DNA from: an uncultured Candidatus Saccharibacteria bacterium
GTDB lineage: Bacteria; Patescibacteriota; Minisyncoccia; Phycocordibacterales; UBA12088
NCBI GenBank assembly: GCA_964562615.1
Contig: CAZLUD010000001.1
Span: 38,937 to 102,936 of the forward strand
Length of the DNA stretch: 64,000 nt
Direction: 5' to 3'
A program made the translations under genes and the position numbers. Each line of letters begins with the position of its first letter. The stretch's first letter is position 1. The notes under the pieces were generated by a model that saw only the letters and a list, made by a program, of their open reading frames with translations, was not told the DNA's origin and made no database searches. Below are positions 1,605 to 62,227 of the stretch, one piece after another.

Positions 1605-2573
1605 CTATCTATGTAGCGCCAAGGTAAGTAAATGATCCAAAAAGTCTGGAAATTCGCACCCTACCGCTTTTAGCGCTTTTGGCACGAGGGATTCGCTGGT
1701 AAGTCCCGGGAGGGTATTAGTTTCTAGGTAAAAAATGCCTCGTTTTGAATGAATGATAAAATCGCTTCGTGAGTAATGTCTGAGTCCTAACGCTTCATGA
1801 ATGCTTTTGGCAAGACGTGATAATTCATAAGTTTCGTCTTTGGTGAAGTTGCCTGGACAACGCTCTTCACTATTACCTTTATATTTTGCATCATAGTCAA
1901 AAAAGCTACTTCCTGTCTTTGGGACTATTTCTATTGGCAACATGGCGTACAGTGGTTCAGAACGAAAATGTTCAAGCACCCCAACTGTTGCCTCCTTGCC
2001 TTGTATATATTCCTCAACTAACACCCTTGGGCTTATTTCAAACGCGGCGCGTACCGCATCTTCAAATGCAGCAAACGTACGTGGTAGTGACACCCCTACA
2101 CTAGAGCCGGAGTGTGCAGGCTTTACCACAAGTGGTGGTGCAAATGTTTTAAATGCACGAACCAAGTCTCCCGCGTGCGTACTTGAAACCACCAACTCAA
2201 CAGACCCTGGTGTTTTTAGCCCGGCTGTTTTTGCAATATCCTTTGCGCGTAGCTTATTCATTGCAAACGCACTCCCTAGTGCCTTTGAGCCAGTATAGCG
2301 GACCCCAACAGTATCCATAAGACGCTGTATCTGCCCATCCTCACCATATGTACCGTGAAGCGCATTAAATACTACATCTACTTGTCGTAGCACTGAGATT
2401 GGTTCTACAGGTCTTCCTTGATGGTGCCACACACCACTTGTATCAATAAAAATATCTTTTGCGTGATACTTTTCACTTGGGAGATGTTGTAGTACCTCGG
2501 CACCTGTACGCAAAGACACCTCATACTCATGTGAGGGTCCACCACGAACCACGCCTACTCGTACCCTATGCAT
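1605..2573 (-). CDS. ddl: D-alanine--D-alanine ligase
   Basis: ORF track 1605..2618. Start moved to the internal ATG giving MHRVRVGVVRGGPSHEYEVSL, the canonical Ddl N-terminus. ATP-grasp body with EEYIQGKEATVGVL and C-terminal LETNTLPGLT. Confidence 0.85.
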   Translation of the reverse strand: MHRVRVGVVRGGPSHEYEVSLRTGAEVLQHLPSEKYHAKDIFIDTSGVWHHQGRPVEPISVLRQVDVVFNALHGTYGEDGQIQRLMDTVGVRYTGSKALGSAFAMNKLRAKDIAKTAGLKTPGSVELVVSSTHAGDLVRAFKTFAPPLVVKPAHSGSSVGVSLPRTFAAFEDAVRAAFEISPRVLVEEYIQGKEATVGVLEHFRSEPLYAMLPIEIVPKTGSSFFDYDAKYKGNSEERCPGNFTKDETYELSRLAKSIHEALGLRHYSRSDFIIHSKRGIFYLETNTLPGLTSESLVPKALKAVGCEFPDFLDHLLTLALHR

Positions 2574-6818: not shown

Positions 6819-8888
6819 CTATTTTCGCTTCCATCTCTTGCGCGCCTTTTTTGCTCCATCGTCTCCCATAAGCTCTGCAATTTCGTCTCGCAGAATGGCG
6901 GCAGTCTCAAAGTCTAGTAATTTTACCGCTTCTTCCATTTGTGTGCGTTTTTCAGCAATGGTTGCCTCTGGGTTGTTGTCGTATAGCGCTCGGTCTATTT
7001 CAAGTAATGCGCCGACCGCCTTTTTGTGTTCGGTTCGAAGGTGTTCTGTGATGTCATTAATAGATTTCTTGATACTGGTTGGTGTAATATTATGAGCAAC
7101 ATTGTATGCGTGTTGCACTTCACGTCTGCGACGTGTCTCGTTAATCGCTTTACTCATTGAGTCAGTCACCTCGTCCGCATACAGTATCACCTTACCTTCG
7201 ACATTTCGTGCAGCTCTTCCCATGGTTTGCATCAGGGATGTTTCTGAGCGCAAAAAGCCTTCTTTGTCAGCATCAAGTATCCCCACCAACGTTACTTCTG
7301 GTAGATCAAGACCCTCACGCAACAAGTTTACTCCTACCAGCACATCAAATGTCCCTTTTCTAAACTCAGTGAGTGTGGTGATTCGGTCAATGGTTTTTAC
7401 ATCGCTATGCAGATACTCTGCCTTAATATCTTTTTCTTTGAGAAATTCAGCAAAGTCTTCTGCCATTTTCTTGGTAAGAGTAGTCACAAGCACTCGTCCT
7501 CCCTTTTTTACTGCCGTACTTGTCTCGTGTATAAAATCTTTTACTTGTCCGCCGTACTTGCCTTTAGCAAGAATCGGACGAACCTCGATTTCGGGATCAA
7601 GTAGTCCTGTTGGGCGCACTATCTGCTCTGCAATGCCACCCATTGGCGGCACTGAATGTTCCTTTTCATAAACACCAGGAGTTGCCGAGGTATAGATTGT
7701 TTGCCCCACTCGAGCCTCAAATTCAGTAAAGGTAAGTGGTCGATTATCTTTTGCGCTTGGTAATCTAAATCCATGGTCAACCAGTGTCTGCTTTCGCGAT
7801 TGGTCACCAGCAAACATGGCCCTGAGTTGTGGCACCGTCACATGAGACTCATCAATAATGGTAATAAAGTCAGGTGAGCCGTCTTTATGATGTGGAAAAT
7901 AATCAATGAGCGTATACGGTGGATCACCAGCGTTTCTTCCATCAAAATGTCGTGAGTAGTTTTCTACCCCATTGCAATATCCAACCTCTCGTATCAGAGC
8001 AAGGTCATAGTTCGTTCTACGTTTGAGACGCTCTGCTTCTAGAATTTTTCCTTCTTTCTCAAACACCTTTAATTGCGCCGCAAGCTCAGCCTTAATATCT
8101 TTTGCAGCGCGCTCACGTTCTTCTTCAGGAGTTACGTAGTGCTTTGCAGGGAAAATAAAAATACTATCTACCTCTTTTACGAGCGCTCGAGAGACAGGGT
8201 CAATGATTGATATTGATGATATACCTGAACCCATAAATGCTACTCGATAAATAATCTTTTCATTGATGGGCATTATTTCAAGCACATTTCCTCTCCCTCT
8301 AAACTCCCCCGGCGAGAGGTCTGCGTTAGTACGGGTAAAATAAATCGCCACAAGCTTTCTTACCATTTCAGCCCTCGTTATTGTCACCCCTTTTGCCAAT
8401 TTGACATTAACCTTTTCATACTCACTTGGGGAGCCAAGTCCGTAAATACATGATACTGATGCCACCACAATGACATCGGTTCGAGTGAGGAGTGCTTGAG
8501 TTGCCGAGTGACGCAAGCGATCAATCTCTTCGTTTACCATTGCCTCCTTTTCAATATAGGTATCAGACGTGGGCATGTACGCCTCTGGTTGATAGTAATC
8601 GTAGTACGAAACAAAGTAGTGCACTGCCGCATCAGGAAAGAACTCTTTATATTCTTGCGCGAGCTGTGCTGCAAGTGTCTTGTTATGAGCAATAACAAGC
8701 GCAGGCTTGTTTACCGTTGCAATTACATTAGCGGCAGTAAATGTCTTGCCTGAACCAGTTACACCAATAAGGGTCTGGTGTCGAAGACCCTTTTCGTATC
8801 CTGATAGCAATGTCGAAATAGCCTTGGGTTGATCACCTGAGGGCTTATACTTTGATACCAGGGTAAATGGGTTGCGTGACTTTGCCAT
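6819..8888 (-). CDS. uvrB: Excinuclease ABC subunit B
   Basis: LIGVTGSGKTFT Walker A, YDYYQPEAY motif and C-terminal UVR domain (ILRDEIAELM). Confidence 0.95.
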   Translation of the reverse strand: MAKSRNPFTLVSKYKPSGDQPKAISTLLSGYEKGLRHQTLIGVTGSGKTFTAANVIATVNKPALVIAHNKTLAAQLAQEYKEFFPDAAVHYFVSYYDYYQPEAYMPTSDTYIEKEAMVNEEIDRLRHSATQALLTRTDVIVVASVSCIYGLGSPSEYEKVNVKLAKGVTITRAEMVRKLVAIYFTRTNADLSPGEFRGRGNVLEIMPINEKIIYRVAFMGSGISSISIIDPVSRALVKEVDSIFIFPAKHYVTPEEERERAAKDIKAELAAQLKVFEKEGKILEAERLKRRTNYDLALIREVGYCNGVENYSRHFDGRNAGDPPYTLIDYFPHHKDGSPDFITIIDESHVTVPQLRAMFAGDQSRKQTLVDHGFRLPSAKDNRPLTFTEFEARVGQTIYTSATPGVYEKEHSVPPMGGIAEQIVRPTGLLDPEIEVRPILAKGKYGGQVKDFIHETSTAVKKGGRVLVTTLTKKMAEDFAEFLKEKDIKAEYLHSDVKTIDRITTLTEFRKGTFDVLVGVNLLREGLDLPEVTLVGILDADKEGFLRSETSLMQTMGRAARNVEGKVILYADEVTDSMSKAINETRRRREVQHAYNVAHNITPTSIKKSINDITEHLRTEHKKAVGALLEIDRALYDNNPEATIAEKRTQMEEAVKLLDFETAAILRDEIAELMGDDGAKKARKRWKRK

Positions 8889-8910
8889 AGACTAAGACTA
8901 CACGATTTTC

Positions 8911-10101
8911 TTAAACTGACGAATCTAATTTTTCACGTTCAAGGCGAAGTAGCCGTTCAAGAAAAAATACATTCGACATACTACAGAGCACTCCGCCGAG
9001 CATCTCACCACTGCGTAGTAGATGCGCCACGTATGCTTTTGTATACCCCTTCAACCGTTCGCACTCGCCCGTCTCATCAAGTGGGCTCTCATCGTGTTTG
9101 TAGCGCTCGTTACAAAGATTGATTTTTTCACCCTGCGCGTTGTATATCATACCTGTCCTACCAAGCCGAGTTGGCTGCACACAATCAAATAAATCAATGC
9201 CTTTTTCTATACCGCTTATAACATCCTCCGGTTCTCCAATACCAAGCAAATGACGTGGTTTATCCTCAGGCAATATATCGGTCACCCATCCCACGGCGGT
9301 GTCCAAGTCCTCTTTTACATATGAGCCGCCAATGCCATACCCATCAAAATCCATATCTGCAAAAAATCGAGCACTTTCTTTCCTTAAATCCTCAAATCTT
9401 CCACCCTGCACAATACCAAAGAGTGCCTGCCGCTCTCCCATGGTGGTGTTTTGTCTATGTGCACTAAGAGAGCGCTTTGCCCAGCGGTGCGTTCTCTCCA
9501 TTGCTTCTAATTGATACGCATGATCTGCCGTAGCGCTAGTACATTCATCAAAAGCAAAAATTATGTCCGCGCCAATGTTGTGCTGTATTTCGATAGAACG
9601 CTCAGGAGTAAAGCGATGAAGAGTACCATCGATGTGTGAGGTAAAGGTCACCCCTTCATCATCTATTACTGCAAGCTTTCCGTGTTCAGAGAGTATATCA
9701 GGATCAAAAAACACTGGTCTTCTTTCATGCGCCACGCTGTCTATATCTGCTTTTGCCACCTTGGTAAGGTTCTTTCCAAACGCAGCACCAAGTGAGAATA
9801 CTTGAAATCCTCCCGAGTCAGTTGAGACTGGTCCATCCCAGTTCATAAATGAGTGAATCCCTCCCAATTTTTTTATTATTTCGTCTCCTACGGTGAGGTA
9901 TAGATGGTACGTATTTGCGATAACCGCATCAACACCTAGCGCTTTCCAATCATGTGCACCAATACCCTTTAACGTTGCCTTTGTGGCAACAGGAAGCAGT
10001 GTTGGTGTCTCGATAATACCGTGGGGGGTTATAAGCCTCCCCCGTCGCGCTTTACTATTTGTTTTCTTTTTAAGAATTTCAAATGTTATTGGCTTTTTCA
10101 T
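8911..10101 (-). CDS. tgt: Queuine tRNA-ribosyltransferase
   Basis: ARRGRLITPHGIIETPTLLPVATKATLKG, YHLYL and a zinc-site C-terminal region. Start set at MKKPITFEIL rather than the upstream in-frame ATG of the ORF track. Confidence 0.85.
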   Translation of the reverse strand: MKKPITFEILKKKTNSKARRGRLITPHGIIETPTLLPVATKATLKGIGAHDWKALGVDAVIANTYHLYLTVGDEIIKKLGGIHSFMNWDGPVSTDSGGFQVFSLGAAFGKNLTKVAKADIDSVAHERRPVFFDPDILSEHGKLAVIDDEGVTFTSHIDGTLHRFTPERSIEIQHNIGADIIFAFDECTSATADHAYQLEAMERTHRWAKRSLSAHRQNTTMGERQALFGIVQGGRFEDLRKESARFFADMDFDGYGIGGSYVKEDLDTAVGWVTDILPEDKPRHLLGIGEPEDVISGIEKGIDLFDCVQPTRLGRTGMIYNAQGEKINLCNERYKHDESPLDETGECERLKGYTKAYVAHLLRSGEMLGGVLCSMSNVFFLERLLRLEREKLDSSV

Positions 10102-37018: not shown

Positions 37019-37210
37019 GGTTCAGGCAAACACCGGCTTGGAATGCACGCAGGTGCCGCTTGCGTTTAGGGTTCGAAGCCCTTTCGGTGGGGTCAACGAC
37101 TTATCCTTCCTGCGAAGCATAAGTGGGAGACAGAGAAACCAGTGCTCAGCACATAGGCGTACAAGACCTGCCTGAACCACCACGCCACCCATTATTATGA
37201 GTGGCGTTTT
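37019..37210 (+). ncRNA. Candidate small RNA (~190 nt): promoter, a 160 nt body closed by a 10 bp terminal stem (GGTTCAGGCA…TGCCTGAACC), then a hairpin and T-tract terminator
   Basis: All elements read from the sequence. No plus-strand CDS lies downstream. Several internal helices are possible. The architecture (5' and 3' ends paired, irregular long hairpin) is 6S-like but unverified. Confidence 0.4.
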
Positions 37211-37243
37211 GCATACTATATATAATAAGACGATAAGCTTCAC

Positions 37244-37861
37244 CTAGAAACCAAGTTTCTCTTTCACAATAATCACCATTACCTTTCTTCCCATAAAGGC
37301 AGGTTCACATTCAATCGTAAGCACTTTTGATAGTACCGTACCGCCCATCCCCACTTCTTTCATACGTACATCTTCAAGCGGAACCACATACTCGCGGATA
37401 CGCTGCATGGCATCAGCGTGGGTTGGCGTTATCTTTTGTGCTCCCACCACAAAAATAATATTCTTTGAAGTAAATACGATAGGTGGCAACTGACTCCCTG
37501 ATGCAGAAGCTATTATCAGCTCACCAGTTTGTGCAAGCGCATGAACGCTACCAAGATAGTACTCAGCAAACAACGATGCATTTCGTAGCTCTTGCTTTTT
37601 TGCAGGATCACTCTCTGCAACCACGCTCGCATGGAGATTATTCCATCCATGCGTATCTGATTTTAGGTAGTCTACTAGCCCAATCTCTTCAAGGGTTCGA
37701 GATGAACCGTTGTTTACAGAGGCTCCCTGAGGGATAAGCTCGATCACTTTTGCTAGCGCCTCTTCTTTGGTGGCAACCACCACCGCTTCAATATTACGCT
37801 CGGTAAGTGCTTTGGTGGCTTGTTCAATAATGTTGTCATCCGGTAGTAGATCGTAACTCAT
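37244..37861 (-). CDS. LUD-domain protein (LutC/YkgG-like, DUF162)
   Basis: Size and pattern consistent with the LUD domain (…IIFVVGAQKI…). Moderate confidence. Confidence 0.55.
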   Translation of the reverse strand: MSYDLLPDDNIIEQATKALTERNIEAVVVATKEEALAKVIELIPQGASVNNGSSRTLEEIGLVDYLKSDTHGWNNLHASVVAESDPAKKQELRNASLFAEYYLGSVHALAQTGELIIASASGSQLPPIVFTSKNIIFVVGAQKITPTHADAMQRIREYVVPLEDVRMKEVGMGGTVLSKVLTIECEPAFMGRKVMVIIVKEKLGF

Positions 37862-37930
37862 ACAATAGTTATGTTACTGATTAAAGGTGAATACTCCACA
37901 ATAGTGCACTATACCACGCTCCCTACGTTC

Positions 37931-38293
37931 CTATTGCTTTGATTTTTCTTCTTTGAGGCGGTATGAAATTATTTTTTTAATAAGCGACACTGGCAATGGC
38001 TCGTAGTATGAAAAGCGAATGCACCCTTTAGAAAAAGATATATTTCGTTTTGTTAGCTCATCAGCATACGCAACAACGCCAGAAGGTGCAGGATAAAACC
38101 CTAGGTGTCCTTTCATCGCTGCAAAATGAACAACATTTTTTCCATATAGCTGTATGGTAGGCATACCGTACCTAATCACCTCCTCACCCTTAGGAACAAG
38201 CGAATTAATAAGCGCTCTCATTTCTTTTACCTTAGGCAAAAACTCTGGTGCCACCCCTTTCATATACTCTTGTATCGTAGAATAATCTTTCAT
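37931..38293 (-). CDS. DUF1801 (YdhG-like) domain protein
   Basis: VVHFAAMKGHLGFYP pattern typical of DUF1801. Confidence 0.5.
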   Translation of the reverse strand: MKDYSTIQEYMKGVAPEFLPKVKEMRALINSLVPKGEEVIRYGMPTIQLYGKNVVHFAAMKGHLGFYPAPSGVVAYADELTKRNISFSKGCIRFSYYEPLPVSLIKKIISYRLKEEKSKQ

Positions 38294-38326
38294 GTGTAGT
38301 GTTGCTACTCTCTACTATTATCATTC

Positions 38327-38743
38327 CTATAATCCATACAACCCAATAAGCGCTGCCGCTATCCATGAGCACACCGACACTCCTCCTGATACCAGTAGTA
38401 CATGCTGTTCATCTTTTCCTAGAGACGCATACGTCGCTGCCGACGCTTTATGCATCAGTGCATTAATAAAGAAGCTATTTATTAATAGTGTAGTTACGCA
38501 AGCAAGCTTTGCATAAAAGAGCGGTTTCTCAAGTAATATCTCCCACATTGGTAGCGCGGTAGCTACACCAGTAGCAATAAGCAGCAACAAACCCGCCATG
38601 ACTGCCCGATGTGTCCAAACGATCTTTTTTTGAGGTATGGTTGCTGATCTACCCGTAACATAGGCGACACCAAGATGATCACCGTACAATACCGCAGGTA
38701 CAGTGATGAGTAGTGCAAGAAAGTGAAGTGATACGGTGTCCAT
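38327..38743 (-). CDS. Hypothetical polytopic membrane protein (138 aa)
   Basis: Four predicted transmembrane helices; no motif recognised. Confidence 0.4.
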   Translation of the reverse strand: MDTVSLHFLALLITVPAVLYGDHLGVAYVTGRSATIPQKKIVWTHRAVMAGLLLLIATGVATALPMWEILLEKPLFYAKLACVTTLLINSFFINALMHKASAATYASLGKDEQHVLLVSGGVSVCSWIAAALIGLYGL

Positions 38744-39231
38744 TATTTGATGATACCTATCTCATAACCAGTAATAGTTTCTTGCGGGCGTGCATCACCA
38801 CTGTGTTGTCCGGTAAAGGCAGCAGTACCATCAATACCGCAAATACCAAGTATTCGCTTAGCGCCACCAGGGTGTTTTGTGATAAACGAAGTAAGGTCGT
38901 ACACCTTACCCTCAACGATAGTCCAACATGAACTTTGATTATTATGAAGCGCAACGTCGGCAGTAGTGTAGCTAGCAACAGTAGTTGGCTTGGTGGTTGG
39001 CTCAGTGGTTGGTGTTGATGATGGGGCGGTTGTTGGAGTTGATACTGATGCTTCTGAAGAAGCACCTTCTGTTTGTGTTGGTGCACTTGGCGTTACAGTT
39101 ATATCTGCTGAAGTGGTTTCTGATACAGAGGTATCTACAGTGCGATTATCAGCAGGCGACATAACAATATATGCCCCAATAAAAATGATAAAAACGCCGG
39201 CAACAATGCCAAGTAATGTTTTTGTTGTCAT
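38743..39231 (-). CDS. Membrane-anchored cytochrome b5-like heme/steroid-binding domain protein with a Ser/Thr/Pro-rich linker
   Basis: C-terminal domain with a pattern typical of cyt b5-like domains (HNNQSSCWTIVEGKVYDLTSFITKHPGG…CGIDGTAAFTGQHS). N-terminal transmembrane helix. ATG at 39231 chosen; a TATAAT box 6 nt upstream suggests a leaderless transcript. The ORF-track start at 39270 is TTG. Confidence 0.55.
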   Translation of the reverse strand: MTTKTLLGIVAGVFIIFIGAYIVMSPADNRTVDTSVSETTSADITVTPSAPTQTEGASSEASVSTPTTAPSSTPTTEPTTKPTTVASYTTADVALHNNQSSCWTIVEGKVYDLTSFITKHPGGAKRILGICGIDGTAAFTGQHSGDARPQETITGYEIGIIK

Positions 39232-39365
39232 GTGCCGATTATATACCAATCTCCCCCTTTTGTTTATCAAAAGGTGATTACTAATCTAGTCATGACAGTA
39301 AGTGCAAATCATAACTATCCCGATTTCCGATTTTTATGGAGTAGATTGTGACTTACTCTAGCTTT

Positions 39366-40118
39366 CTACTTCTTTGAAAATCCTTCAAGTGCGCGAAGTG
39401 CTTCAACCGGAATCATATATACCACCGTGTTACTTTGGTCTGAGGAAATATCATTAATTGATTGCAGTGTGCGTAAATGAAGCGCTCCGGGCATACTTGA
39501 AAGCATCTCTGCAGCTTTGGCGAGATTTTGTGACGCTGCAAGTTCACCTTCTGAGTTAATGATCACCGCTCTTTTCTCACGCTCTGCTTCAGCTTGCTTT
39601 CCTATGGTGCGCTCCATATCTGCTGGCAGACTCACATCTTTGAGTTCAACATTTTGCACCTTAAGTCCCCAGGCATCTGTTTCTTTGTCTACTATCTCAC
39701 GAATACGCTCTGCAATTTTATCCCTACTTGAAAGGAGCTCATCAAGGGTTACTTCGCCCACAATATTTCGCATCGTTGTTTGTGCGTATTGCGATATAGC
39801 ATACTGATAGTCCTCAACCTCTATCACTGCCTTGTTTGCATCTACTACTTTGTAGTAGATAACGGCATTTACCCGTACGACTACGTTATCCCGTGTGATG
39901 GCATTTTGATCTGGTACGTCTACCGCTTTTGTACGGATATCTACTTTTTGATACCCCTGCACAATAGGAAACACGAGGCGCCACCCAGGCTCCATAATGC
40001 TCGTAAATTTACCAAGGGTGAACTTCACCCCTCGCTCATACTGATTTATTTGGCGGATACTTACCACCACAAGCGTGATAAGTGCTATGACTATAATGTA
40101 CAAAAGTGATGTGGTCAT
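39366..40118 (-). CDS. SPFH/band-7 (stomatin-like) membrane protein
   Basis: N-terminal transmembrane helix, SPFH domain and a C-terminal coiled coil (ERTIGKQAEAEREKRAVIINSEGELAASQNLAKAAE). Confidence 0.75.
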   Translation of the reverse strand: MTTSLLYIIVIALITLVVVSIRQINQYERGVKFTLGKFTSIMEPGWRLVFPIVQGYQKVDIRTKAVDVPDQNAITRDNVVVRVNAVIYYKVVDANKAVIEVEDYQYAISQYAQTTMRNIVGEVTLDELLSSRDKIAERIREIVDKETDAWGLKVQNVELKDVSLPADMERTIGKQAEAEREKRAVIINSEGELAASQNLAKAAEMLSSMPGALHLRTLQSINDISSDQSNTVVYMIPVEALRALEGFSKK

Positions 40119-40201
40119 AGCGGTGCATTAGATACTGATATGTATGCAGTATACCACTCACCAACACACGCGTGAATAACTCCTTGGCTTTGAGAAAATA
40201 C

Positions 40202-40221
40202 TAATCGTGGCTGTCCCTATT
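40202..40221. repeat. 20 bp direct repeat taatcgtgGctgtccctatt, copy 1 (copy 2 at 42204-42223 with one mismatch)
   Basis: Read directly. Both copies are intergenic and flank a ~2 kb three-gene segment. Confidence 0.55.
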
Positions 40222-40318
40222 TTCTACCCTATTCGCTACTGGTCGTCTGATGCAAAGAATAACTGGGTATGTTTAAAGAAGAGACCCCATCCTACGATGG
40301 GGTTTAAGTTAGCCGTGA

Positions 40319-40768
40319 TCATTCGCTAGATGCATGAGTAACGATGGCATCATAAATATTGTCCTCCTTCAAAACAATTTGTTGCGCATATACTATACCC
40401 CTTGGGAGATAGTTGGGGTGATAGAAACGTAGCTGACCTTGATCAGCGCTCAGATCCTCCGGAATACTTGAGAGAATTCGAATATCGATAGTCGATTGAG
40501 GTGACTCGGATACATCATTCCCTTGGCCTACAATTCGTTTTGTTCGCTGTATTGCTACAATCTTATCTGTACTCAACATTTTATTGAGAACACTAATCAG
40601 ATCGGAACTGTCTTTGAACCTTCGAGTGAAGTGAGTCTCTAACTCTTTCATAGTGACCCCTAGATGGCCATTGCCACCACAGGTCTGGTGATTCCGCTGT
40701 CGACGCTCTTTGTAAACGATAATTACTGCCGAAAGAAACTTCTGTTTCGAGGCAAGTGTACCAGTCAT
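40319..40768 (-). CDS. Hypothetical protein (149 aa), compositionally distinct (GC-richer codons)
   Basis: ORF track; no family recognised. Confidence 0.4.
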   Translation of the reverse strand: MTGTLASKQKFLSAVIIVYKERRQRNHQTCGGNGHLGVTMKELETHFTRRFKDSSDLISVLNKMLSTDKIVAIQRTKRIVGQGNDVSESPQSTIDIRILSSIPEDLSADQGQLRFYHPNYLPRGIVYAQQIVLKEDNIYDAIVTHASSE

Positions 40769-41022
40769 CCAACGCTCCTCCAGTTGGTCTACTTACAGTA
40801 AATACAATTTAGGCAATTAATTCAAGGTGTGTATGTCGCAAGGTGCTGAATCATGACTATCAGCATTTTTCATTTCCGAAGAAATAATAGTGCCTGTCCA
40901 TACAATTTCTGCCTTGGTGAAGAGCTTGATTTAATACATTTCTATATATATCCTATATAGTGGTTGTGAACTAAAAACTACTCACAGTTTGCAACAACCT
41001 AACCAGTCTGGGAGAAACGTCA

Positions 41023-41556
41023 ATGCATCTACAAGTGTCTAACCCCGACCCCCACAAGGTCACACGACTCAGCGAAGACACAATCCCCTCAGTAAAGGGA
41101 GAGTGGTATAACTACCGCTCTGTATTCACACCAATGCGACCGCTTGGCTACCTCATGAAGTGCAAGGCGAACAAGGACAGGCCATTGTGTTTCGTTGAGG
41201 AGAACGATGGTGTCGACATAACCTTTGTGTTCGACGAGGAGGTTGTTCAGGTTTGCTCACCAGACTCGGAGCACTCCCTGAAGATGATGGCTGGCCGAGT
41301 TGACCCTAAAACTCTCAAGAAGGTCAACTTCGTTCAAACATCTCTAACCAAAGTGCAGTTTGACGCTATTCGAATAGGTAAAGATGTTGTCAGTCTACTC
41401 ACGGTGTGCCAGAGCGGATCGGTGGCAAATTGTTTGCTAGTAACGAAGGGTATAATTCTGGCTATCAAAACGCAAGCAGGGATATACTGCTTGATGCGAG
41501 CTACAGAGGTAAACCCTCACAAGGTATGCTTTGATGCATGCCACATACTTCTCTAG
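41023..41556 (+). CDS. Hypothetical protein (177 aa), GC-richer codon usage than its surroundings
   Basis: ORF track. Third-position G/C-rich codons (ccc, gac, aag, gtc) contrast with neighbouring AT-rich genes. No family recognised. Confidence 0.45.
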   Translation: MHLQVSNPDPHKVTRLSEDTIPSVKGEWYNYRSVFTPMRPLGYLMKCKANKDRPLCFVEENDGVDITFVFDEEVVQVCSPDSEHSLKMMAGRVDPKTLKKVNFVQTSLTKVQFDAIRIGKDVVSLLTVCQSGSVANCLLVTKGIILAIKTQAGIYCLMRATEVNPHKVCFDACHILL

Positions 41557-41582
41557 AATTACTTTCAGCACACAGCTCTGCC

Positions 41583-41614
41583 GAGAAATCTCTCGGCAGA
41601 GCTGCAAGTCTTTA
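41583..41614 (+). terminator. 14 bp perfect hairpin cagctctgccgaga/tctcggcagagctg downstream of the 41023..41556 gene
   Basis: Perfect inverted repeat with a 4 nt loop. No T-tract follows. Confidence 0.45.
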
Positions 41615-41687
41615 GAATAATTGTTGAGTAATAGCAATAAAGTTATACTCAGTAATACTTTTTTAAACTAAATTAAGTAAATAAATT

Positions 41688-42158
41688 ATGCATATACGAG
41701 AATTTGAAAAAAATGACCAGGAAGCTGTAGAAAAAATATTTGCCTTATATTGGACAGACCCAGAGTTTCTTAAAGAGCTTTCAGATGAATTGGAATCGTA
41801 TATCCAAATACACCAACATAGTGAGTCTGGTTTCTTTGTTGCTGAAAAAAATGCGGAGATTTTAGGAATAGTCGGTTTTAAGAAATTGCCTGATTACCTA
41901 AAACCATTTGCAAAAACCAGTAGGCCTGTTGAGTTTTATATTATTGCTGTGAAGAATAAAAGAGCTGGCGTAGGAAAGATCTTGAAATCAAGACTAATTG
42001 AAGAAGCGTATAAATCTGGTTTTAGTGAGATTCTTCTGTATAGTCCAGGTTCTCACAATGAATCCTGGAAATTTCATGACATTCTAGGTTTTGAAAGAGT
42101 TGGAGAGGTGACTCCCCCAGAAGATGATATTGGACACGTCTGGCGAAAGATTCTGTAG
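41688..42158 (+). CDS. GNAT-family N-acetyltransferase
   Basis: FYIIAVKNKRAGVGKILKSRLIEEAYKSGFSEILLY matches the acetyl-CoA-binding motif A of GNATs. The gene and its upstream region are very AT-rich. Confidence 0.7.
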   Translation: MHIREFEKNDQEAVEKIFALYWTDPEFLKELSDELESYIQIHQHSESGFFVAEKNAEILGIVGFKKLPDYLKPFAKTSRPVEFYIIAVKNKRAGVGKILKSRLIEEAYKSGFSEILLYSPGSHNESWKFHDILGFERVGEVTPPEDDIGHVWRKIL

Positions 42159-42202
42159 ATGCTTTCTATGGGCAGGTCAGGACCCATTCTTCACTTGTAT
42201 AT

Positions 42203-42757
42203 TTAATCGTGACTGTCCCTATTCCCTCTCTTCTGAATCTTTTTTCCAATTTCTTTTAAATCCCTCAAGAAAACATTCTTATTGTTTACCATCCTATAGG
42301 AGTTTGGATGTTTGATGCAGAATACGTGTTTGAAACTTGGAAATGTGGGGAGGAAAAGTTTCTCTGTATTTTTTCCAATACATAGAATCGAAGTAGTTTC
42401 CTTCACCCCGAGAATTTTAAATTGCTTTTCCAAACTCTTAATATTATCTCTCATAAATTTTCCATCCTTCTCTTTCCATTTCCGAATTACAATCCCAGAT
42501 TTTGGTTCAGGACAAAATATAAGATCGGTCATGTATGAACCTAGAAATGGCGACCTTGAAAATCCTTCTAAATACCATTTGTCAAAACGATGTCCAACTT
42601 TGTGATAATTCTCTCCAAACTTAATCACCGCAGCGGGATTGAGACCAATTATGACAATTCGGCAATGCAATAATTTTGTAGTTTTCCTGGGATCAAATGG
42701 CCAAATCGCAAACGATGCCGTTGTAAATTGTTTCAGTTTTTTAAGTTTTTCTTTCAT
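42203..42757 (-). CDS. Uracil-DNA-glycosylase-superfamily-like protein (Mug/TDG-like motifs)
   Basis: HCRIVIIGLNPA resembles UDG motif 1 (GINPG), and CIKHPNSY resembles motif 2 (HPSP). Low-moderate confidence. Confidence 0.35.
   Translation of the reverse strand: MKEKLKKLKQFTTASFAIWPFDPRKTTKLLHCRIVIIGLNPAAVIKFGENYHKVGHRFDKWYLEGFSRSPFLGSYMTDLIFCPEPKSGIVIRKWKEKDGKFMRDNIKSLEKQFKILGVKETTSILCIGKNTEKLFLPTFPSFKHVFCIKHPNSYRMVNNKNVFLRDLKEIGKKIQKRGNRDSHD
42204..42223. repeat. 20 bp direct repeat taatcgtgActgtccctatt, copy 2
   Basis: 19/20 identity to 40202-40221. Confidence 0.55.
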
Positions 42758-42808
42758 ATAAAATTTGGGTCATGGAGGAAACAGGGACGACATCCGAACT
42801 ACACTTTT

Positions 42809-43450
42809 TTAGTTATTCAATACTTCTCTTAAGGCCATGTCTACTCGTTTAAACGTAAAGTAAAATCCTTTTACAAAATCATCCTTTGCAAAATCTTCAA
42901 GGCCTGGAATACATCTTTTTTCAGCAGATAGCTTTGGATCAAGCTGGACGTTTATATCAAAAGGATGACATCCACCTTCATAGAGACTATATCCTAAATT
43001 GTAATAATATTCAGCTCCAGTAGCCATTGTATTCAAGTCCTCACGAATTTCCTCGCCAAGAACCACTTCAATGCGAGGTATAACGTTATAGTAGTTATCA
43101 AGTGCGAGTCTTAATTTTTCTAACCGACTTCTAAAGGCACTATCAGTCCAGTGCCTCTTATCCGGGAATTTGGGTTCGCCTTCTGAATCCCAAACAATCC
43201 CCCCTCTTAGTGCCGTCTCTTCAACGTTAATATCGGTTGTTTTAACTAAAGCTAGAACGTCACGAAGGTCGTATATTGCAACAAGCGCATCTCTTGCAAC
43301 ATTGTATTTATCTAAACCTCTTGTTTCTTCATACCAAACATTTAGAGCCAGAAAGGCTATAGCAACTAGTATCCCTTGGAGAAATACATTTATCCATACT
43401 GCAATTGAGTCGGTCTTTATTGCTTTTAGTTTTCTTAAAAAATTTCTCAT
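42809..43450 (-). CDS. Hypothetical membrane-anchored protein (213 aa)
   Basis: ORF track; one N-terminal transmembrane helix; no family recognised. Confidence 0.4.
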   Translation of the reverse strand: MRNFLRKLKAIKTDSIAVWINVFLQGILVAIAFLALNVWYEETRGLDKYNVARDALVAIYDLRDVLALVKTTDINVEETALRGGIVWDSEGEPKFPDKRHWTDSAFRSRLEKLRLALDNYYNVIPRIEVVLGEEIREDLNTMATGAEYYYNLGYSLYEGGCHPFDINVQLDPKLSAEKRCIPGLEDFAKDDFVKGFYFTFKRVDMALREVLNN

Positions 43451-43696
43451 TACTAGGTGTTATTCTTACCAACCATGCAGGGATAATGGGGACTGGGACA
43501 ATATTCAAGCAAATATCGTGTCCTAATTACTCTTCGGTCTTCCCACTCCCAGCTACTGCAACTCGAGCTGTTCTTGGCATAAATATATTAATATCACACT
43601 TTATTTGATTTTATTGTCCTTGTCCTTATTTCTATCTTAAGGCTCCTTTTTGTTTTGCTTCCTTCGCTTTGTCTAAGAGTTTTTGCAAATCCATAT

Positions 43697-43945
43697 TTAC
43701 TTGAATTTAAGCTTGTCTCCGAAGAACCACAAAAAGAAAGCTGCGCCAGCAAAAAAGTAGGCGGCTTCAGTATATCCTAAAACTTCCGCACCTATGGCTA
43801 AAAATAAACTTACTATCCAATAGAAACCAAGGTCTTTGTGAGCGTTGTGTGCTCCGCCAGAATAAATACTGATAATAATTATGCCTAAAATTCCAAGAAC
43901 TATGTAGTTAAGAATCATGGTGTAAATTATAACCCCTCCAATCAA
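43697..43945 (-). CDS. Small membrane protein (82 aa, three predicted transmembrane helices)
   Basis: ORF track; hydrophobic throughout. Confidence 0.35.
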   Translation of the reverse strand: MIGGVIIYTMILNYIVLGILGIIIISIYSGGAHNAHKDLGFYWIVSLFLAIGAEVLGYTEAAYFFAGAAFFLWFFGDKLKFK

Positions 43946-44378
43946 GTTGTCCCTTGTAAGACGCTGCCGGGAAGTTATTTGAACTGGAGTTGATCTGTAC
44001 GATTATTTGAGCAATTCCAACAATTATTGAAATAATGATTGCCGCAATAGCTATTCGAGTAGCACGTTTACCACCTTCTTGTGCCATTTTTAGCTCCAAA
44101 TAGTCGACCGCAGCGGCAATACCTTGAGCGCTTAAATAATATACTTCCCGAAGCTTGCGGCCTTTAGGAAGAAATTCTTCGGAAATGATCCAGATTAGTG
44201 GAGCATTTCCATTTAGTCCGTTGAAAAACATCCAATGAATCCACGTCCATTCCTCATCAGACAAATTAAGAGCGTCTTTCATTTCTGCTTCTGTAAAGCC
44301 TGTATGTTGTTTTTCATACGCCCACAGTAGCGTACGTACGTAGATAGATTTTTCTGGTTTTACATCCATAATCCCCAT
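43908..44378 (-). CDS. Hypothetical protein with a C-terminal transmembrane helix
   Basis: ORF track 43908..44489. Start moved to the internal MGIMDV because the upstream part overlaps the inverted tRNA-fragment hairpin. Uncertain. Confidence 0.3.
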   Translation of the reverse strand: MGIMDVKPEKSIYVRTLLWAYEKQHTGFTEAEMKDALNLSDEEWTWIHWMFFNGLNGNAPLIWIISEEFLPKGRKLREVYYLSAQGIAAAVDYLELKMAQEGGKRATRIAIAAIIISIIVGIAQIIVQINSSSNNFPAASYKGQLDWRGYNLHHDS

Positions 44379-44535
44379 TGTATCGTTTTGGACAGATTTG
44401 CTAAGCGACGCGACTTGAGCGCGAGAACCTATCACGACTTGGCTGCCGAACCTCAAATCTTCACTCCTTGGAAACCCACGGTTTTCCATAGCCTTCCTTC
44501 ACGGGAAAACAGCTGTTTTCCCGACCCCTTTCGCG

Positions 44536-44552
44536 TTCGAATCCAAGTCCGA
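44536..44552 (+). repeat. Inverted 17 nt copy of the tRNA-Gln 3' end (gttcgaatccaagtccg) 26 nt beyond the tRNA 3' terminus
   Basis: The reverse complement is identical to tRNA positions 51-67 (T-loop to acceptor). It forms a long hairpin with the tRNA 3' half. Confidence 0.55.
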
Positions 44553-44574
44553 CATCGCTCATTTCATTCGCTAG

Positions 44575-44645
44575 CTGCCGGACTTGGATTCGAACCAAGA
44601 TACACGCCTCCAAAGGGCGTAGTCCTACCATTAGACGATCCGGCA
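44575..44645 (-). tRNA. tRNA-Gln (anticodon UUG)
   Basis: Reverse complement TGCCGGATCGTCTAATGGTAGGACTACGCCCTTTGGAGGCGTGTATCTTGGTTCGAATCCAAGTCCGGCAG folds as a cloverleaf with anticodon loop CTTTGGA, U1:A72 and G73 (Gln identity). CCA is not encoded. Confidence 0.85.
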
Positions 44646-44686: not shown

Positions 44687-45316
44687 CTAGCTGAAAAAGC
44701 TTTTGCGTATGGGGGTAAATCTTTCTACGCGCCACTTCCCTTCTGTTGTGCTGGTTGCATGAAAGCCTGCACAATGCGCAAGCTCGGCAATTACCGCAAG
44801 GGGGCGGCGAAAAAATGGCACAAATCTGTTACCCTTTAGCACATCCGCCATCTCTAAAATAATAGCATTGTGCGCAATAATAAGTAGCCTCTCTTGCGGT
44901 GCCGCACCTGCGTGTATACGCGCGAGCGCCTTAGTGGTTCTTGCTCTAAATTCATACGGATTTTCTTCATCACTGTGGTGCGCGCGACTTGCGCCAAGCA
45001 AAAAAAGTAGTGAGGCGATATAGAGTGAGCGTGGATGAAAGTATGAAAGATCAGCAAGCACTGATGGGCGGCGCTCTTCACGCAAATCTTCATGACATGA
45101 GAGTGGTACACCAAGTGCCTTAGCAACAATGGTTGCGGTTTGCATGGCTCGTGTTGCGGTACTTGTCTCTATGTGGGTAATACCGTGTGTGGAGAGTGCT
45201 GCTGCTAGTGCGCGTGCCTGCTCCTCCCCTTTTGGCGATAGTGGAGTGTGGTGCCTTTGGTGTGCAAGACGAGCGTTGTGCCCTGTTATCCCATGTCGCA
45301 CGATAAACAATTCCAT
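44687..45316 (-). CDS. Histidine phosphatase (phosphoglycerate-mutase-like) family protein
   Basis: LFIVRHGITGHN RHG motif. Start set at MELFIVRHG to avoid overlap with dnaX. Confidence 0.65.
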   Translation of the reverse strand: MELFIVRHGITGHNARLAHQRHHTPLSPKGEEQARALAAALSTHGITHIETSTATRAMQTATIVAKALGVPLSCHEDLREERRPSVLADLSYFHPRSLYIASLLFLLGASRAHHSDEENPYEFRARTTKALARIHAGAAPQERLLIIAHNAIILEMADVLKGNRFVPFFRRPLAVIAELAHCAGFHATSTTEGKWRVERFTPIRKSFFS

Positions 45317-45317
45317 A

Positions 45318-46331
45318 CTAGGAGAGTACCTCAAGAAGAGAAAGCTCAAGCACAATGTATGGGTCGTATGCCTTTGGCATAGTGCCAAGCGCGCTCAGGA
45401 GCCCAATTAATGCCTTTTTTGCTAGCGCCTCATCAATACTGCTAAGAAGTAGTACATCCGCTTCAGAAAATCCTTCTTCGTATTTCTTAGCAAGAAGAGG
45501 TGCCACCGTATAGAGTAGTGCTTGTCTAAATTTTCGTACTAAAAGCTCAGCAAGTAGTACTGGGTGCATGCCATCGCGTGAGGCTTTTGCTAACTCGGCA
45601 AATACCGCCTCTTTATCTCCACTTTTTATTGCAGATAAAAGAGCGTGTACTAATGCTCCCTTTGGGGCGCCGGTCATGCTCTCTACTACTTCTCTTGTGA
45701 TGGCGGTTCCATCGGTTGCGCTCATTGCCTTTTGCAATATGCCATGCGCATCACGAAAGGAACCTTCTGCGATAAGCGCGATAAGTTCTGTTGCTTCTTT
45801 TTCTATGCTATACCCCTCCTTTTTGGTTACCGCCTCAAGCATTGCCACAAGCGTAGTGGGTGATGGTTGTTTGAAATGAAGCGTCTGACAACGCGAAATA
45901 ATTGTCTCAGGAAGGCGGTCAATCTCGGTGGTTGCAAGAATAAACATGACATGAGCAGGTGGCTCTTCGAGCGTTTTGAGGAGTGCATTAAATGCTTCTT
46001 TAGTGAGCATGTGCACCTCGTCAATGATGTATACCTTTTTTGGAGATTCAAAGGGCAATACGGCAATGGCGCTTTTTAGCTCTCGCACATCATCAATACC
46101 TCTGTTTGATGCAGCGTCTATCTCTACCAAATCATTGTGCGTGCAGCCAACCGCATCCGCGAGGATACGCGCAATGGTGGTCTTGCCGGTGCCGCGGGGG
46201 CCAGCAAATAGGTATGCATGGGCAACGGCGTTATCTTTGAGGGCGCCTTTAAGTGTTTGTACTATGTGGTCTTGCCCTAAGACTTCACTGAAGGATTTTG
46301 GACGGTATTTTCTGTATAGTGCCTCGCTCAT
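45318..46331 (-). CDS. dnaX: DNA polymerase III subunit gamma/tau, short form
   Basis: LYRKYRPKSFSEVLGQDHIV…YLFAGPRGTGKTTIARILA, DEVHML and SRCQTLHF sensor motifs. Start chosen at MSEALYRKYRP. Confidence 0.8.
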   Translation of the reverse strand: MSEALYRKYRPKSFSEVLGQDHIVQTLKGALKDNAVAHAYLFAGPRGTGKTTIARILADAVGCTHNDLVEIDAASNRGIDDVRELKSAIAVLPFESPKKVYIIDEVHMLTKEAFNALLKTLEEPPAHVMFILATTEIDRLPETIISRCQTLHFKQPSPTTLVAMLEAVTKKEGYSIEKEATELIALIAEGSFRDAHGILQKAMSATDGTAITREVVESMTGAPKGALVHALLSAIKSGDKEAVFAELAKASRDGMHPVLLAELLVRKFRQALLYTVAPLLAKKYEEGFSEADVLLLSSIDEALAKKALIGLLSALGTMPKAYDPYIVLELSLLEVLS

Positions 46332-46425
46332 GTATGGCTTAGTATAGCAGAGGTTTATGGTAGCCAAAACTCCACACAAAAAGCGCCCATAGACGGCGCT
46401 TTTTGTGTGGAGTTTTGTTGAGTGA

Positions 46426-59845: not shown

Positions 59846-59928
59846 GCTGGGGTGGCGGAATGGTAGACGCGATTGACTCAAAATCAATTGCCCGAAAGGG
59901 TGTGAGGGTTCAAGTCCCTCCTCCAGCA
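59846..59928 (+). tRNA. tRNA-Leu (anticodon CAA), type II with a long variable arm
   Basis: GCTGGGGTGGCGGAATGGTAGACGCGATTGACTCAAAATCAATTGCCCGAAAGGGTGTGAGGGTTCAAGTCCCTCCTCCAGCA. Anticodon loop CTCAAAA, long variable stem-loop, discriminator A. CCA not encoded. Confidence 0.85.
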
Positions 59929-59951
59929 CAAACGAGTGAAGCGAGTGTAGT

Positions 59952-60053
59952 ACTGGAGGAGAACAGTACCTTCGTACTGTTCGTAGGGACTTGCACCACA
60001 AGAGTATTTCCATTTTACTAACTCACTTTGTTCGTAAGTAAAATTGGTCATGA
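59952..60053 (+). repeat. Repeat unit R1 of a tRNA-Leu-associated repeat family (~100 nt)
   Basis: The core (gggacttgcaccacaagagtatttccattttactaactcactttgttcgtaagtaaaattggtcatgacc) aligns with R2 and R3. It carries the hairpin aacagtaccttcgtactgtt, which is also present with compensatory changes in R3. Confidence 0.6.
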
Positions 60054-60115
60054 CCGGAGCCTTATCGAGCGAATGCGAGATGGCGAGGTCCGACCTAATT
60101 TTTACGACCGTAGGG

Positions 60116-60147
60116 AGATAAAAATGGAAGTACCCTTGTGGCCGACC
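60116..60147 (-). repeat. Partial inverted copy (R4) of the repeat core (agataaaaatggaagtacccttgtggccgacc)
   Basis: Reverse complement matches the ccacaagggcatttccattttt core of R1/R2. Confidence 0.45.
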
Positions 60148-60186
60148 AGCGTTCTTATGAGCGAAGCGAATTAGCAAAAGCGTGTC

Positions 60187-60202
60187 AGTCCCTCCTCCAG
60201 CA
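60187..60202 (+). repeat. 16 nt exact direct repeat of the tRNA-Leu 3' end (agtccctcctccagca)
   Basis: Identical to 59913-59928 in the same orientation, 259 bp downstream of the tRNA. Confidence 0.6.
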
Positions 60203-60250
60203 CCATGAACAAAGGAGTCAGAAGCGGAGCTTTTGACGACTATTGTGAAT

Positions 60251-60330
60251 TGCTGGAGGAGGGACTTGTACCACAAGGGCATTTCCATTTTTCTAACTCG
60301 CGTTGCTCGTAAGTAAAATTGGTCATCGCC
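60251..60330 (+). repeat. Repeat unit R2; it begins with an inverted 18 nt copy of the tRNA-Leu 3' end (tgctggaggagggacttg)
   Basis: About 85% identical to R1 and R3 over ~70 nt; 37 nt identical to R3. Confidence 0.6.
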
Positions 60331-60497: not shown

Positions 60498-60803
60498 TTA
60501 TTTTGATTTATTTTGATTTTCTTCTCGTGCCAGGCGCGTAGATAGATCAGCAAGTTCTTTTTGCGCTTGTGCTGCCTTTCTTTTGAAATCTTCTATTTGC
60601 TTTTTAATTGTTTCTGCCTCTTGATCCTTGCGCTCAAGTATTCTTTTCATTCTTTCTATGTCACCTTCCTTTCTTTTTATTTCTTCCTCATCCTTTTTAA
60701 TTTCAGCTTCTTTTTTTGTTAATTCTGAATTCAGTCTTTCTTCTTGCTTTTCAAGATTTTCTATCTCTCTTTCTGTTTGTTGTATTAATTGTTCTATGGC
60801 CAT
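60498..60803 (-). CDS. Small coiled-coil protein (101 aa, E/K-rich)
   Basis: ORF track; heptad-rich with no transmembrane helix. Flanked by the repeat family. Confidence 0.45.
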   Translation of the reverse strand: MAIEQLIQQTEREIENLEKQEERLNSELTKKEAEIKKDEEEIKRKEGDIERMKRILERKDQEAETIKKQIEDFKRKAAQAQKELADLSTRLAREENQNKSK

Positions 60804-61821: not shown

Positions 61822-62002
61822 ACTGAAGCTTTGGCATGGCAAAGCTCAGCATATGCGATATCTGTGGCGGGCATTGCCACGCCGTTGCGTATGCGAAGGC
61901 GGGCCCACTCCGATTGGCGTCAGCTCACTAAGCACGTTGTGCTAAGTGGCTCCTGCCCGACCTCGCCTGTCGTGCTCGCTATGCTCCGCGCGACATGGCT
62001 CC

Positions 62003-62115
62003 GGTGCTGACCAATTTTTGTTACGAGCACTGCGAGTTAGAAAAATGGAAATGCCCTTGTGGTACGAGTCGGAACAAACAGCACGAAGGTGCTGTTTTGT
62101 GTTCCCTTCACTCGC
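62003..62115 (-). repeat. Repeat unit R3 (inverted orientation relative to R1/R2)
   Basis: Reverse complement aligns with the R1/R2 core. It contains the hairpin aacagcaccttcgtgctgtt, covarying with the R1 hairpin. Confidence 0.6.
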
Positions 62116-62227
62116 TAGACGCTCGTTGCGGGCCCACTCCGACTCGAACGGAGGACGCTGGTTTTGGAGACCAGAATTTTACCTCTAAACTATAGGCCCG
62201 TTATATTTGATTCCCTCAGGTGGCGTA

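Follow-up and report, generated by a model that had tools for sequence, protein, structure and literature searches.

The 64,000-nucleotide (nt) stretch analyzed here (the window) comes from an assembly deposited as an uncultured Candidatus Saccharibacteria bacterium (contig CAZLUD010000001.1). Between an SPFH gene and a tRNA-Gln gene it contains a segment of seven open reading frames (ORFs; o1 to o7). We conclude that this segment is probably a lineage-specific, mosaic accessory islet of 4.4 kb, located in the variable flank 3' of the tRNA-Gln that ends a gene block deeply conserved in Parcubacteria/Paceibacterota. Such an islet belongs to an already known kind, the accessory islet at a tRNA-flank hot spot. 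It was probably built in at least two steps, from a minimum of two to three pieces that were acquired separately: o7-o6-o5-o4, an AT-rich run of co-oriented genes for three small membrane proteins and then a divergent glycosylase of the uracil-DNA glycosylase (UDG) superfamily; a two-gene module of o2, a putative Cys/His-bearing ligand-binding protein of HmuY fold, and o3, a GNAT N-acetyltransferase; and the orphan o1.

Conserved gene order ends at tRNA-Gln

We place the window in an uncultured member of the Parcubacteria/Paceibacterota. Its DnaX has no match above 51% identity among 185,579 species representatives, and the best matches are Parcubacteria metagenome-assembled genomes (MAGs). 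Seven Parcubacteria loci, with DnaX 46 to 51% identical, keep the gene order that the window shows between its positions 45.3 and about 60 kb, with tRNA-Gln next to DnaX at the end. In these distant genomes the conserved block, tRNA-Leu...Dus-DnaX-tRNA-Gln, stops exactly at tRNA-Gln, and beyond it nothing in the seven loci matches the window's left side. The genes found there differ from lineage to lineage. Locus L001 has GrpB, an N6/N4 DNA methylase with a MutH-like nuclease, HIT, and a metallo-beta-lactamase-fold protein, in a flank that is AT-rich (GC content 36.7% versus 46.1% upstream). Locus L006 has GIY-YIG, an APH-family kinase, a glyoxalase/bleomycin-resistance protein, peptidase S51, NUDIX, and a methyltransferase, and L002 has alpha/beta hydrolases and a zeta toxin. 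With synteny ending at tRNA-Gln and a different cargo in each lineage, the proposal of an earlier note on this DNA, that accessory-type DNA occupies a variable flank 3' of a tRNA, was borne out. An apparent ORF similarity downstream of tRNA-Gln in L002 was rejected because the match came from the tRNA itself.

The left neighbor of the segment gave a further comparison. A scan of Joint Genome Institute (JGI) metagenomes for SPFH yielded 80 loci (L091 to L170) from other genomes of the candidate phyla radiation (CPR). SPFH is 82 to 91% identical across these loci and its neighbors are unrelated, which points either to unusual constraint on the gene or to its exchange among CPR lineages. None of o1 to o7 is encoded in any of the 80 loci. 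One of them, L091, has Dus-DnaX-tRNA-Gln and then SPFH about 90 nt on, in the same relative orientation as in the window. It is the sole SPFH locus that also bears DnaX and Dus, both just about 50% identical to the window's, and it resembles an empty site, which is suggestive only.

Layout and composition of the segment

The ORF list of the 64-kb window places the seven ORFs where the earlier note had put them. Its inventory of a GNAT, a UDG-like protein, three membrane proteins, the tRNA-Gln, and the SPFH neighbor was confirmed by ORF, Pfam, hydrophobicity, and tRNA checks. The features are as follows (aa, amino acids).

39366-40118, minus strand: SPFH/Band-7 gene, left neighbor of the segment (Pfam PF01145, E 5e-42)
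40202-40221, plus strand: copy A of the D1 direct repeat, 20 nt, TAATCGTGGCTGTCCCTATT; its minus-strand reading is NRDSHD-stop, as at the end of o4
40284-40303, minus strand: terminator-like hairpin directly 3' of o1
40319-40768, minus strand: o1, orphan protein of 149 aa, average GC
40319-40333, plus strand: distal copy of the D15 repeat, 15 nt, 14/15 match, a weak boundary-repeat candidate
41023-41556, plus strand: o2, 177 aa, GC-rich, small CPR-only family, HmuY-like beta fold
41573-41604, plus strand: perfect 14-bp hairpin 3' of o2, between o2 and the GNAT gene
41688-42158, plus strand: o3, GNAT N-acetyltransferase (Pfam PF00583), AT-rich, conserved partner of o2
42203-42757, minus strand: o4, divergent UDG-superfamily protein (Pfam PF03167), 184 aa, very basic
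42204-42223, plus strand: copy B of the D1 repeat, the last codons of o4
42809-43450, minus strand: o5, 213 aa, one N-terminal membrane helix and a helical domain
43697-43945, minus strand: o6, small protein with two hydrophobic segments, overlapping the end of o7 (public gene calls: 73 aa, 43697-43918)
43908-44489, minus strand: o7, ORF of 193 aa with a C-terminal membrane anchor; start likely at Met41, probable gene 43908-44369
44437-44573, minus strand: tRNA-Gln trailer element, non-coding, structured
44574-44645, minus strand: tRNA-Gln(UUG), anticodon ttg, 3' end toward the segment; end of the conserved gene order
44687-46379, minus strand: histidine phosphatase and DnaX, conserved right flank

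The roughly 135 nt that precede tRNA-Gln (44437-44573) are a structured tRNA-trailer element rather than coding sequence. In the right flank, between dnaX and the 124-aa gene that precedes it, an inverted repeat (46365-46417; 23 bp, perfect, loop of 7 nt) lies just upstream of dnaX; it probably serves as a terminator or as a regulatory hairpin.

The largest tetranucleotide deviation of the 64 kb was found in the 2-kb windows centered at 42.5 to 43 kb (z 5.1 and 4.6), where GC is 0.37 against a mean of 0.436 for the whole stretch. The anomaly is confined to about 41.6-44.4 kb (o3 to o7), with GC of 0.36 to 0.39. Gene by gene, GC is 0.35 to 0.37 in o3 to o6, 0.40 in o7, 0.43 in o1, and 0.48 in o2. 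The atypical composition described in the earlier note therefore holds for this part of the segment and not for o1, which is average. Two of its details did not hold. One of the "two GC-richer hypotheticals" is o1, and o2 alone is GC-richer (GC 0.48; GC at third codon positions [GC3] 0.56, z +2.3). The GNAT that had been singled out as very AT-rich has a GC of 0.365 and is not more AT-rich than o4 to o6.

A repeat-bracketed block and a two-gene module

A direct repeat of 20 nt, D1, brackets the 2.0-kb block o1-o2-GNAT. Its two copies (40202-40221 and 42204-42223), the only ones in the window, match at 19/20 positions, and 0.02 such copies would be expected by chance. The right copy makes up the six final codons of o4 and its stop codon. 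In the gap that separates o1 from SPFH, the left copy reads the same NRDSHD-stop, with no ORF leading into it. Since D1 brackets the block and its right copy is the end of o4, the o1-o2-o3 block would have been inserted at the o4 3' end.

Within this block, o2 and o3 recur as a pair. Adjacent homologs of o2 (57% identical) and the GNAT (75% identical) are found in the same order in locus L184, the only co-occurrence of islet genes across all fetched loci. L184 keeps the GC contrast between the two genes (0.57 in o2 versus 0.32 in the GNAT), the position of the GC-rich hairpin, and the promoter-like intergenic sequence between them, and its left neighbor is unlike the window's. Because the contrast is kept in L184, the difference in composition between o2 and o3 appears to be a trait of the two-gene module and not the mark of two separate acquisitions.

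The o2 family has 20 members, all in CPR genomes, and they are mostly lone genes amid miscellaneous accessory genes, including restriction-modification (R-M) and Shedu-type proteins. In Doudnabacteria (L181 to L183; o2 homolog P0022) the neighborhoods include a type I R-M specificity subunit and a Shedu-type protein (SduA_C), along with small hypotheticals, HTH_5 regulators, GIY-YIG, and DUF6309; these surroundings look like a defense or variable region. Pfam, NCBIfam, PHROGs, and PADLOC returned no match for o2. By fold comparison it has the HmuY beta-sandwich, at 13 to 17% identity to the HmuY family. It resembles the haem-binding HmuY, Tfo, and PinO in this fold and differs from them in several respects. 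No signal peptide, lipobox, or N-terminal hydrophobic segment was found in o2. In place of the HmuY His pair, it has an invariant Cys47, a Cys78 present in at least 90% of members, and an invariant C-terminal Cys-His (the "DACHILL" end). Moreover, o2 is paired with a GNAT and confined to CPR genomes.

The other half of the module, o3, matches the Pfam GNAT profile PF00583 with an E value of 1.6e-8 and 35.3 bits (curated cut-off 20.7). It shows weak NCBIfam similarity to small-molecule acetyltransferases and reaches the cut-off of no equivalog model. The encoded enzyme would N-acetylate a small molecule, with o2 as its Cys/His-bearing ligand-binding partner. A GNAT gene that follows a conserved upstream partner recalls the type II toxin-antitoxin pairs with GNAT toxins (TacT, AtaT, or KacT with ribbon-helix-helix or DUF1778 antitoxins). 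Here, however, the upstream partner is a 177-aa HmuY-fold protein and not a small antitoxin of those families, and the o2-o3 gap of 131 nt holds a strong hairpin and a separate promoter-like sequence. No toxin-antitoxin signature was found for o2-o3 in PADLOC and Pfam searches. This CPR-specific HmuY-fold and GNAT pair, with its striking GC contrast kept in a second genome, is a lead in its own right.

Sequence variation was also observed in o2. Contig L087 of another assembly, identical to the window over 12 kb otherwise, carries ten substitutions clustered at 41009-41061, around the o2 start. The same region encodes the o2 N terminus, a poorly conserved, low-confidence part of the protein.

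The remaining ORFs have few relatives. Searches of Pfam, NCBIfam, PHROGs, and PADLOC returned no match for o1, and just 4 remote relatives (24 to 36% identity) were found among 1.84 billion representatives. Hydrophobic segments give o5 one N-terminal helix, o6 two, and o7 one C-terminal helix, and the three proteins may have envelope-associated roles. Neither o5 nor o7 has a match in the same four collections. A single homolog of o5 (64% identity) was found among 5.8 billion proteins, on a 48%-GC contig of an unrelated genome that has nothing else in common with the window; the structure model of o5 is helical, of low confidence (pLDDT 66), and without a significant fold match. For o6, with no dedicated homolog search made, Pfam, NCBIfam, PADLOC, and PHROGs gave no match, and the fetched loci showed no relative. 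Six homologs of o7 (48 to 69% identity) lie in unrelated contexts, one of them on another CPR contig of the same metagenome and one on a phage-like or mobile-looking contig of 30% GC, which carries GIY-YIG, DUF2726, and MazG-like genes. Because all of these homologs begin at its Met41, the o7 gene is probably 43908-44369.

Acquisition or vertical inheritance

A number of observations weigh against the view that the segment is an acquired islet. Conspecific contigs were collected by exact-protein look-ups in Logan runs, one JGI metagenome, and two NCBI metagenome assemblies. The gene order is identical in every one that reaches the segment (several samples, 97 to 100% nucleotide identity), and no presence/absence polymorphism of the segment was seen among them. 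The earlier note had held that a gene order conserved across related genomes would mark core DNA; within the species, the level examined, the order is indeed unchanged. The collections searched yielded no relative at genus or family level, so that the word "acquired" rests on very distant genomes (DnaX about 50% identical). The empty site in L091 may be a coincidence, because SPFH adjoins various tRNAs in CPR genomes: of 62 loci, 6 have SPFH within 600 nt on the downstream side of a tRNA, where 1.6 would be expected, and several tRNA identities are involved. Synonymous-codon likelihoods of all seven ORFs fall within about 1.4 standard deviations of the other 58 ORFs. The distinct codon usage claimed earlier was therefore an overstatement and comes down to a mildly unusual one. 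The low GC of o3 to o6 owes partly to amino-acid composition. Among the seven ORFs, no integrase, transposase, relaxase, or phage gene was found with Pfam, NCBIfam, and PHROGs profiles, and no distal-boundary repeat of the tRNA 3' end was found, the weak D15 15-mer aside.

Taken the other way, the segment could be old, vertically inherited, lineage-specific DNA whose low GC reflects lysine/isoleucine-rich small or membrane proteins and relaxed selection, the tRNA being a mere synteny breakpoint. The ordinary codon choice, the presence of the segment in every conspecific contig that reaches it, and the lack of detected mobility genes and attachment (att) repeats would all suit this explanation, as would the average composition of o1, given that CPR genomes are rich in orphan genes. 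We consider it unlikely nonetheless. The tetranucleotide deviation is the largest in the 64 kb, and o5 is 64% identical to a protein of an otherwise dissimilar genome. The o2-GNAT module recurs beside a different left neighbor, the significant D1 repeat brackets a three-gene block, and other lineages hold different cargo at the same tRNA flank.

The mosaic accessory islet thus remains our preferred reading. Since it is present in every conspecific contig found to reach the segment, the islet now behaves as ordinary chromosomal accessory DNA. What the earlier note had called a horizontally acquired island or decayed mobile element stands as accessory DNA at a tRNA flank and falls as a single decayed element, the segment being a mosaic of at least two to three modules.

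The conspecific contigs also vary among strains. L082, L083, and L086 are about 3.4% divergent from the window over 37146-39831 and differ by 0 to 1 base (about 0.04%) over 39832-42746, the switch falling within SPFH. The patterns of L084 and L085 are mosaic and intermediate, a sign of recombination within the population. From these data we draw no conclusion on a recent sharing or sweep of the islet between diverged strains: in one sample with the L082/L083/L086 pattern the right flank is likewise about 99.8% identical to the window, and the divergent patch is possibly the exception. Breaks of Logan contigs at the tRNA were rejected as evidence of variability, because shared tRNA k-mers are expected to cause such breaks.

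Boundaries and mobility

Another reading is the remnant of a single integrase-mediated island that entered at the very 3' end of tRNA-Gln, had the D15 repeat as its limits, and later lost its integrase; the tRNA 3'-end location and the partly atypical composition fit it. D15, GCA[G/T]CTAGCGAATGA, spans at 44564-44578 the last 5 nt of tRNA-Gln and 10 nt of its trailer, and recurs 4,245 nt away at the o1 stop codon (40319-40333). The two copies match at 14/15 positions, and a 13-mer match with at most one mismatch was obtained in 11 of 100 shuffles. Because matches of similar quality arise in about one shuffle in ten, D15 is just a weak candidate for an outer boundary; it is short and takes in just 5 nt of the tRNA. 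The interior, moreover, is mosaic in composition and phylogeny, and no integrase pseudogene was detectable among ORFs of at least 40 aa. An inverted tRNA fragment at 44535-44554 was considered as an att scar of the islet and rejected, because a like arrangement follows tRNA-Leu, tRNA-Trp, and tRNAs of unrelated contigs; it belongs to the separate tRNA-trailer family described below. A single island of this type is in our view very unlikely.

The profile searches for recombinases covered the seven ORFs, and the segment has no other long ORF on either strand; on this point they agree with the earlier note, which had seen no integrase. A phage or plasmid origin was rejected. The search of 50,697 phage records with o4 and o7 (tblastn) gave no match, nor did pattern and tblastn scans of IMG/VR with o1, o2 (profile), o4, o5, and o7 (profile). 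The sole PHROGs match was a generic acetyltransferase for the GNAT o3.

The divergent glycosylase o4 and the question of defense

The o4 protein matches the Pfam UDG profile PF03167 at positions 7 to 136 of 141 (E 6e-10, 39.7 bits, cut-off 24.3), and stretches resembling the GLNPA and HPNS motifs were recognized by eye only. No NCBIfam, PDB-sequence, phage, or viral-contig match was found, and o4 could not be assigned to any characterized UDG family by NCBIfam or PDB sequence. It would excise some damaged or modified base. Brig1 and Brig2 are UDG-superfamily single-gene defenses against phages with modified bases, and Brig2 homologs tend toward A/T-rich, recently acquired DNA (PMC11078745; bioRxiv 10.1101/2025.10.29.685425). 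What o4 shares with them is superfamily and setting: it is a highly divergent UDG-superfamily gene that stands alone and lies in A/T-rich, variable DNA. It differs in having no adjacent defense systems or mobile-element genes.

The earlier note had suggested a small defense or toxin-type system among the seven ORFs, and no PADLOC, Pfam, or PHROGs match pointed to one; PADLOC gave two chance-level matches only (E 0.03 to 0.04), in a version, 2.0, that predates Brig1/Brig2. That the AT-rich run o7-o6-o5-o4 is a small anti-phage module, in which o4 would excise modified phage bases and the membrane proteins might help, seems to us highly improbable: the absence of a close characterized relative of o4, its AT-rich variable setting, the Brig precedents, and the R-M system (L001) and zeta toxin (L002) at the equivalent flank would favor it, but PADLOC returned no match, known defense genes were not found as neighbors in the window, o4-o7 do not co-occur elsewhere, and, from the 64 kb available, o4 may just as well serve the cell as its repair glycosylase. 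As a single gene, o4 is a candidate lead for the recently recognized glycosylase-based phage defense.

Structured elements that trail tRNAs

In the trailer of tRNA-Gln, positions 44535-44554 are a 20-nt antisense copy (19/20) of the tRNA from T-loop to acceptor; a hairpin follows at 44502-44523, and at 44442-44451 the tRNA 3' end recurs as a weak copy in sense orientation. Elements of the same logic trail tRNA-Leu (59846-59929) and tRNA-Trp (62128-62199). In these two the order is a leader motif, an antisense copy of the tRNA's own acceptor and T-arm that is split by a conserved hairpin, a conserved tail, and a direct repeat of the tRNA 3' end 212 to 256 nt downstream. The conserved tail has four copies in the window. 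The cargo of the Leu and Trp elements is 81 to 92% identical, and the antisense and sense arms track the respective tRNA. Trailer elements were located as follows.

44437-44573, minus strand: window
59930-60330, plus strand: window
61900-62127, minus strand: window
1982-2133: L105
about 8837-9024, minus strand: L095
1689-1842: L147
9637-9795: L167
about 6959-7161, minus strand: L017
1525-1780: L092

Aragorn was run on all fetched loci, which gave 74 tRNAs with enough flank, and we scored those in which an antisense copy and, beyond it, a direct repeat each reached 11 nt or more. The full antisense-then-sense layout was found downstream of 8 of the 74 tRNAs and upstream, as a control, of none (0/74); the cases include CPR tRNA-Gln, tRNA-Ser, and tRNA-Met and two Firmicutes MAGs. 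When the tRNA is left out of the fold, 6 of the 8 elements form a structure closed by a terminal stem between the antisense arm and the direct repeat; the element of tRNA-Trp is an exception. The tRNA-Gln trailer is homologous to the trailer of tRNA-Phe in L092. Rfam matched no family except tRNA in the window or the trailer elements, and a literature search on the layout found nothing relevant.

These sequences might constitute an undescribed class of elements templated on tRNA 3' ends, and possibly the hairpin-forming attachment sites of miniature integrative elements that mark or create tRNA-flank hot spots, an idea to which we give a small chance. Speculatively, the order sense, spacer, antisense, middle, sense is what a small circle would leave behind on integrating through a folded hairpin site. 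This would resemble the way in which CTX phage and integron cassettes integrate as folded single strands. Should the elements prove mobile or functional, they could account for the targeting of cargo to tRNA flanks where a genome lacks classical integrases. They are the most unusual lead of this analysis and the part most worth a further look.

Two ORFs overlap the trailer repeats, at 59884-60288 (minus strand) and 61946-62188 (plus strand). No other ORF in the window scores as poorly in codon usage (z -2.6 and -3.2), and the two are probably not genes. Just past the trailer elements of tRNA-Leu, adjoining miaA, a 101-aa ORF (60498-60803, minus strand; GC 0.33; GC3 0.21, z -2.5) may be another small insertion at a tRNA flank.

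Comparison with known systems

Measured against integrase-mediated tRNA islands, the segment has the location at a tRNA 3' end and, for 41.6-44.4 kb alone, the composition. Among its seven ORFs, neither an integrase or recombinase nor a remnant of one was found near an end. All conspecific contigs that extend far enough contain the segment, and every distant relative lacks it.

Among the closest known systems are the tRNA-flanking genomic islets and hot spots of the flexible genome. The segment departs from them in that no integrase, clear tRNA-derived repeat, or presence/absence polymorphism was seen, and in its host, a CPR bacterium with a small genome. It shares with them the 3' side of a tRNA, the end of a conserved block, a partly atypical composition, a cargo that differs per lineage, and patchy gene distributions. 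The segment shows that small-genome Parcubacteria keep, at the deeply conserved DnaX-tRNA-Gln junction, a recurrent variable hot spot that holds varied accessory genes with no visible integrases.

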